From Escherichia coli (lineage in GTDB: Bacteria > Pseudomonadota > Gammaproteobacteria > Enterobacterales > Enterobacteriaceae), in NCBI RefSeq assembly GCF_030384885.1, contig NZ_CP128613.1: DNA of 64,000 nt, one strand, 5' to 3'. Both the position numbers and the translations under genes were made by a program. Shown one piece after another: positions 10,674 through 10,872 of the stretch. The notes beneath the pieces are model-generated. The model had not been told where the DNA came from. It made no database searches and worked only from the letters and a program-made list of their open reading frames with translations. Within the stretch, counting starts at the first letter, position 1. Every line of letters starts with the position of its first letter.

Positions 10674-10815
10674 GTACACCTTTCCAGATACGGGAGGCGA
10701 AGTCATTTCTTCCTTCGCCCTGGTGGCAATCTTTGTAAGCATTGTCACGGCCAAAGCACCGTATCAGTTGACCCAGGTGCAGAGGCTAGAGTGTTTAGTG
10801 GTTAAGCCGATACTA
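10674..10815 (-). ncRNA. molybdenum cofactor (Moco) riboswitch in the moaA 5' leader (approximate bounds)
   Basis: Established location of the Moco RNA motif immediately upstream of moaA; the leader here is long, structured and GC-rich. Bounds not verified by covariance-model search. Confidence 0.5.
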
Positions 10816-10848
10816 GCGTGTAAATGTGATTTTTACCATCCACACTTT

Positions 10849-10872
10849 CGCTATGTAATCATATATATAGCG
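10849..10872. promoter_or_regulatory. ModE operator at the moaA promoter
   Basis: Inverted repeat cgctatgtaatcatatatatagcg (CGCTAT...ATAGCG), the ModE-type site upstream of moaA. Confidence 0.6.

Follow-up and report, generated by a model that had tools for sequence, protein, structure and literature searches.

The moaA leader region of an Escherichia coli strain: a Moco riboswitch and an upstream ModE-type site in the proposed control of moaABCDE

Which regulatory inputs act on moaA, and where they lie in the DNA between this gene and the divergent ybhK, is the question raised by the locus described here. A first-pass annotation of the window (the whole stretch of DNA that was analysed, 64,000 nucleotides) had assigned to positions 10674-10872 a Moco riboswitch and a palindromic ModE-type operator. 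The results presented below indicate that this is very probably the canonical control region of moaABCDE in E. coli, in which several regulatory inputs are combined. The sequence and structure matches, covariation, consensus matches, conservation, geometry and gene identities were obtained in this analysis, and the dependence on FNR, ModE and Moco, the start sites, and the effects of CsrA and Rho are taken from the literature. The genes relevant to the question are the following:

9684-10673, minus strand: moaA, GTP 3',8-cyclase, the regulated gene (TIGR02666, 369.7 bits against a cut-off of 284; RefSeq)
11071-11979: ybhK/yvcK, divergent from moaA
43376-44149: modA
44593-45381, plus strand: modE, the regulator gene (NF007957, 500 bits against a cut-off of 369)

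The start codon of moaA is the ATG at 10673-10671 on the minus strand, and the moaA-ybhK intergenic region extends over 397 bp (10674-11070), with 98% identity to K-12 MG1655. A 501-nt query across the region showed 100% identity to E. coli strain 2013C-4282 and 95-99% identity to 5,420 other complete genomes.

The Moco riboswitch of the moaA leader

A covariance-model scan located the Moco RNA motif (RF01055) at 10805-10661 on the minus strand, with 103.4 bits, above the gathering score of 36, and an E-value of 1.2e-24. The match covers model positions 1-135, i.e. the full length, and in RefSeq these bases are annotated as a 'molybdenum cofactor riboswitch'. The earlier reading of the leader as a Moco riboswitch, which hinged on a significant covariance-model match, is borne out by this strongly positive result. 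The riboswitch leader is real, but the lower bound proposed for it, 10674, stops 13 nt short of the end of the motif: the riboswitch reaches 13 nt into the coding sequence of moaA, where positions 10670, 10668 and 10667 take part in the outer P1 pairs (10803-10667, 10802-10668 and 10800-10670). Mapped to the window, its parts are:

10661-10805, minus strand: Moco riboswitch, aptamer and expression platform, with P3 present (RF01055; RefSeq)
10789-10803, minus strand: P1 5' strand, with the anti-Shine-Dalgarno ACAC.C at 10794-10789 (Rfam alignment mapped to the window)
10667-10683, minus strand: P1 3' strand, which holds the Shine-Dalgarno and the moaA AUG (Rfam alignment mapped to the window)
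10750-10786, minus strand: P2, with inner stem and tetraloop-receptor bulge (Rfam alignment)
10723-10748, minus strand: P3 hairpin (Rfam alignment)
10695-10720, minus strand: P4 hairpin, with the GAAA tetraloop at 10709-10706 (Rfam alignment)
10684-10694, minus strand: P5 mini-hairpin, CC...GG (Rfam alignment)

All P1 pairs are canonical in the window sequence. The Shine-Dalgarno, GGUGU at 10680-10676 (as AAAGGUGU, 10683-10676), is part of the P1 3' strand and is paired through 10794-10676, 10793-10677, 10792-10678, 10791-10679 and 10789-10680, and the moaA AUG (10673-10671) lies inside the P1 internal loop. The same platform was reported by Regulski et al. (2008; PMC2408646), with the ribosome binding site within P1 nucleotides. 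The receptor bulge of P2 is a CCUGGG/UACGG variant of the canonical CCUAAG/UAUGG present in relatives. According to the same authors, the P3-present and P3-absent classes of the motif follow the use of Moco and Tuco, respectively (Regulski et al., 2008; PMC2408646); on this assignment, the moaA leader, with its P3, belongs to the class responding to Moco and not to that of Tuco. Genetic evidence for ligand-dependent repression is available for the K-12 leader, which is near-identical to this one (PMC2408646). A 2023 review notes that a direct interaction between Moco and the RNA has yet to be demonstrated in vitro (PMC10265488), and in the field it is inferred.

To analyze the conservation of the riboswitch, moaA loci of other species were collected, 80 in all, picked by the MoaA protein alone and spanning Enterobacterales, Vibrionales, Aeromonadales and Pasteurellales. 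A full-length RF01055 match abutting the start codon was present in 79 of them (65-106 bits), the sole locus without a match at the gathering score being the region upstream of moaA in Rosenbergiella gaditana. The riboswitch is common to gamma-proteobacterial moaA loci. RNAalifold, run on an independent plain MAFFT alignment of 46 of the loci, recovered P2, P3, P4 and P5 de novo, and of 26 pairs 17 had compensatory changes; P1 was missed in this alignment because MAFFT misaligned the 5' ends. For P2, 90.4% of the cells were paired, with 47 double-change cells versus 9.6 in shuffles and a covariation score of 0.625 versus 0.231 in shuffles, a value reached by none of 500 shuffles. The Shine-Dalgarno strand of P1 is invariant across loci, so that the assessment of covariation was limited to the other helices.

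A protein is also known to act on this RNA. CsrA has been reported to have two sites within the aptamer and to activate moaA translation (PMC7652899; PMC4347634). The aptamer contains exactly two GGA motifs, at 10713 and 10685. The first (10713-10711) is located in P4 and the second (10685-10683) in P5, immediately 5' of the Shine-Dalgarno, and both may correspond to the CsrA sites.

Folding of the leader as a single sequence gave a minimum free energy structure of -42.5 kcal/mol (z -1.96) that differs from the Rfam fold, for which the window sequence gives -26.6 kcal/mol. In this alternative structure the P2 5' strand, UGCACCU (10781-10775), pairs with the Shine-Dalgarno, AGGUGUA (10681-10675). 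The resulting helix is 79% pair-compatible in 46 species and shows zero covariation, because the Shine-Dalgarno is invariant. The structure was not adopted, given its weak z-score and a helix of its own without covariation, whereas P2 of the Rfam fold covaries. It is unlikely that the P2 5' strand serves as a second anti-Shine-Dalgarno, in such a way that the RNA would be shut even when free of ligand and its opening would require CsrA bound at the two GGA motifs. If this were the case, the moaA leader would be a three-state device (closed-apo, CsrA-open and Moco-locked) and not a simple two-state riboswitch.

The lability of the ligand and the missing demonstration of direct Moco binding (PMC2408646; PMC10265488), along with the binding of CsrA to two aptamer sites (PMC7652899) and the presence of exactly two GGA motifs, would also fit a leader that is the target of a Moco-sensing protein, with or without CsrA, and not a riboswitch sensing the small molecule directly. 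We consider this very unlikely, since the leader has a large, covarying structure of five helices with tetraloop-receptor architecture, found from Enterobacterales to Vibrionales and Pasteurellales, its P3-present and P3-absent classes follow Moco or Tuco use (PMC2408646), and a Moco-responsive protein factor has not been found to date.

The ModE-type palindrome, the FNR box and the moa promoters

Further upstream, an inverted-repeat scan confirmed the exact position of the palindrome previously noted at 10849-10872. Its arms, CGCTATGTA (10849-10857) and TATATAGCG (10864-10872), are 6 nt apart and complementary at 8/9 positions. The published consensus for E. coli ModE is ATCGnTATATA-N6-TATATAnCGAT (Rodionov et al., 2004; PMC545781), and with respect to CGnTATATA-N6-TATATAnCG the palindrome has a single mismatch, with 15/16 specified positions in agreement. 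No other position in the 64 kb matches the consensus with at most one mismatch, and neither did any of 100 dinucleotide-preserving shuffles; with up to three mismatches, two sites were found versus 0.17 expected. As a ModE-type site, the palindrome is far beyond chance. Its previous designation as such is sustained by the single mismatch and by half-sites identical to those of K-12, where the action of ModE on moa has been mapped and molybdate-dependent ModE binding is reported (Anderson et al., 2000, as summarized in PMC2408646). The modA operator, which reads CGTTATGTAGGCGACAATATAACG, was used as an internal positive control for the scan. The cognate regulator of the site is encoded in the genome, modE being within the 64-kb window. 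The elements considered here are listed below:

10849-10872: ModE binding site, CGCTATATA-TATGAT-TACATAGCG in the direction of moaA, assigned from consensus and conservation; its centre is at about -57 from S1
10803-10805, minus strand: S1 start, about 10804, placed from the published 131-nt leader
10810-10815, minus strand: S1 -10, TAGTAT (TAsTAT in Enterobacteriaceae), from sequence and a conserved block, CGCTAsTATCG
10833-10838, minus strand: putative weak S1 -35-like element, TGGTAA (3/6), 17 nt from the -10, from sequence and a conserved ATGG block
10896-10901, minus strand: S2 -10, TATTCT, in a conserved block, GTATTCTGTAG
10923-10936: putative FNR box, TTGATatacATCAt, with one mismatch, some 40 bp before the S2 start as placed here
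44169-44192: modA operator, the second ModE site, with two mismatches, 20-43 nt upstream of the modA ATG and near modE

Two start sites were described by Anderson et al. (2000), as summarized in PMC2408646: the proximal one, S1, separated from the start codon by 131 nt and activated by molybdate-ModE, and the distal one, S2, at -87 relative to S1 and FNR-dependent. From the latter offset, the S2 start was placed at about 10890. A generic scan for sigma-70 promoters and terminators between 10600 and 11150 returned no promoter and no terminator, so that the positions given for S1 and S2 rely on published data and on conservation; an empty sigma-70 scan is expected for activator-dependent promoters. 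The distance between the ModE site and the weak S1 -35 is 10 bp.

The FNR box is no rarer than chance on its own, according to a window-wide scan with TTGAT-N4-ATCAA. In about 26 Enterobacteriaceae loci its distance to the ModE centre is precisely 69 bp, and the variation in length between genera (0-34 nt) is confined to the interval between the S1 start and P1. The alignment suggests that FNR box, S2, ModE site and S1 constitute one rigid module in the aligned Enterobacteriaceae loci. With one mismatch to TTGAT-N4-ATCAA and some 40 bp between it and the putative S2 start, the box would resemble that of class II FNR promoters; the centre of the box would be at -39.5 to -41.5 with respect to S2, an approximate value as the start is inferred, and class II boxes are centred at about -41.5. 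The region had been described as anaerobic and molybdate-responsive within 10674-10872, and that interval does hold the ModE site, but the anaerobic part, consisting of the FNR box and S2 (about 10890-10936), is outside it.

The presence of the ModE site in other species was evaluated by scanning the 200 nt upstream of each riboswitch in the moaA loci. A ModE-type site with no more than two mismatches was detected in 51 loci, all of them from Enterobacterales (0/50 shuffles for each), and the best matches in coding-region controls had 3-7 mismatches. The site is absent from the loci of Vibrionales, Aeromonadales, Pasteurellales and Arsenophonus, where the best matches have 6-8 mismatches, which is the random level; one Haemophilus locus showed a marginal match with four mismatches to the consensus. 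In the alignment of 17 Enterobacteriaceae, the half-sites are kept (CG...CG flanks and TATATA cores) and the 6-nt spacer is free, a pattern that is the signature of a dimeric regulator.

The term 'operator' used in the first-pass annotation is loose, in that ModE activates the proximal moa promoter rather than repressing it. The palindrome could in principle be a true repressor operator as at modA, with molybdate-ModE shutting off moa transcription, e.g. by blocking elongation from S2: the same consensus acts as a repressor site at modA, in the same window, and the moa site would lie at about +28, downstream of the S2 start, with a fixed 69-bp offset to the FNR box. We regard this as highly improbable, since molybdate-ModE activates the proximal promoter and FNR control of S2 is separate, as summarized in PMC2408646, and the location of the site upstream of a weak -35 corresponds to the geometry of an activator. 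Both sites belong to the same consensus family, CGnTATATA-N6-TATATAnCG, and are read by the same protein, but the modA site, unlike that of moa, covers the promoter and start and represses, whereas the moa site is upstream of the -35 and activates. That an AT-rich inverted repeat arose here by chance, or that the palindrome belongs to a promoter in general and has no dedicated regulator, is barely conceivable: TATA-like palindromes are frequent in AT-rich promoter DNA and a (TA)n run overlaps 10849-10872, but no shuffle gets to one mismatch, the coding-region controls do not go below three, and the flanks and cores are kept in the 51 Enterobacterales loci around a spacer that varies.

The hexamer ATAGCG/CGCTAT is present in four copies in the intergenic region (10849, 10867, 10909 and 10946), the densest spot for this sequence in the window, with 0.19 expected. 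The copies at 10909 and 10946 were considered as extra ModE half-sites (P ~0.015, uncorrected) and discarded, as they are not kept beyond Escherichia; they are probably due to chance.

Proposed control of moaA expression

With ModE as an activator at the moa site, the elements described above could be integrated as follows. Transcription would take place from two sigma-70 promoters, S1 and S2. Under anaerobiosis, FNR at 10923-10936 would turn on S2 (start at about 10890), and molybdate-loaded ModE at 10849-10872, just upstream of the poor -35 of S1, would turn on transcription from S1 (about 10804). Transcripts from both promoters would include the Moco riboswitch (10805-10661). When Moco is plentiful, the aptamer would fold, forming P2 to P5 with the GAAA tetraloop docked into P2; in the folded aptamer P1 would be closed, with the Shine-Dalgarno as its 3' strand and the AUG enclosed in the internal loop, and translation of moaA would be blocked as a result. 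Rho-dependent premature termination has been reported at the moaA 5' UTR/ORF (Adams et al., 2021; PMC7815308), and the leader RNA, when untranslated, would be subject to it.

Comparison with K-12 and neighbouring features

The moaA riboswitch of K-12 has the same locus, length, five helices with P3, and Shine-Dalgarno-in-P1 platform as the one described here, and every helix and core position is identical in both. The sole difference in the riboswitch is in the P3 apical loop, UUAC in this strain and UCGU in K-12, at a non-conserved position; this apical-loop allele (10731-10734) is rare, with 8 carriers among 5,426 complete E. coli genomes. The moa ModE site is also shared with K-12, both 9-nt half-sites, the 6-nt spacing and the distances to the -35, the -10 and the riboswitch being identical. 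The first base of the ModE spacer (10863) is T in this strain, as in ATCC 11775 and others, and C in K-12. An 81-nt stretch comprising S1 and the ModE site is unique to the source strain among the 5,426 complete E. coli genomes, because of the A at 10827, a base private to this strain within the variable S1 spacer. Beside the S1 start, T at 10805 replaces an A otherwise conserved in Enterobacteriaceae, a change also present in E. coli ATCC 11775. A functional role for these strain differences was rejected, as they affect the P3 apical loop or the variable S1 spacer, or correspond to alleles common to other lineages.

Both the riboswitch and the ModE site are already known, as had been recognized at the outset and as the K-12 literature and the RefSeq annotation agree, the riboswitch being already annotated. 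Current understanding is unchanged by the analysis of this leader, in a region that is as in K-12, and its value is in annotation only, in that it fixes the regulatory map beside ybhK and the neighbouring islet. The comparative data are a mildly useful by-product, namely the rigid module of FNR box, ModE site and S1 in Enterobacteriaceae and the occurrence of the ModE site across Enterobacterales.

The islet corresponds to the gene for a 765-aa pentapeptide-repeat protein (12155-14452, minus strand), located between ybhK and the position where uvrB comes next in K-12, which at this position has only 191 bp. The islet had been placed directly beside the promoter region, a description that does not hold, as the whole of ybhK (11071-11979) intervenes. 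On the ybhK side of the intergenic region, a perfect 15-bp palindrome, GCGCTACTGTAGCGC, is located at 11030-11044, 27 nt ahead of the start codon of ybhK, and its core, TACAGTAGCG, is kept across Enterobacteriaceae; it may be the -10 of ybhK (TACTGT) or the site of a regulator. Next to it, a block of around 57 nt (about 10973-11029) is restricted, in the alignment of 17 Enterobacteriaceae, to Escherichia and Citrobacter. Elsewhere in the window, further Rfam matches correspond to the CpoB/ybgF thermometer (142 bits, 59357-59495) and naRNA4 (72 bits, 33311-33381), and a cluster of seven tRNAs with three RtT repeats is found at 57434-58430.
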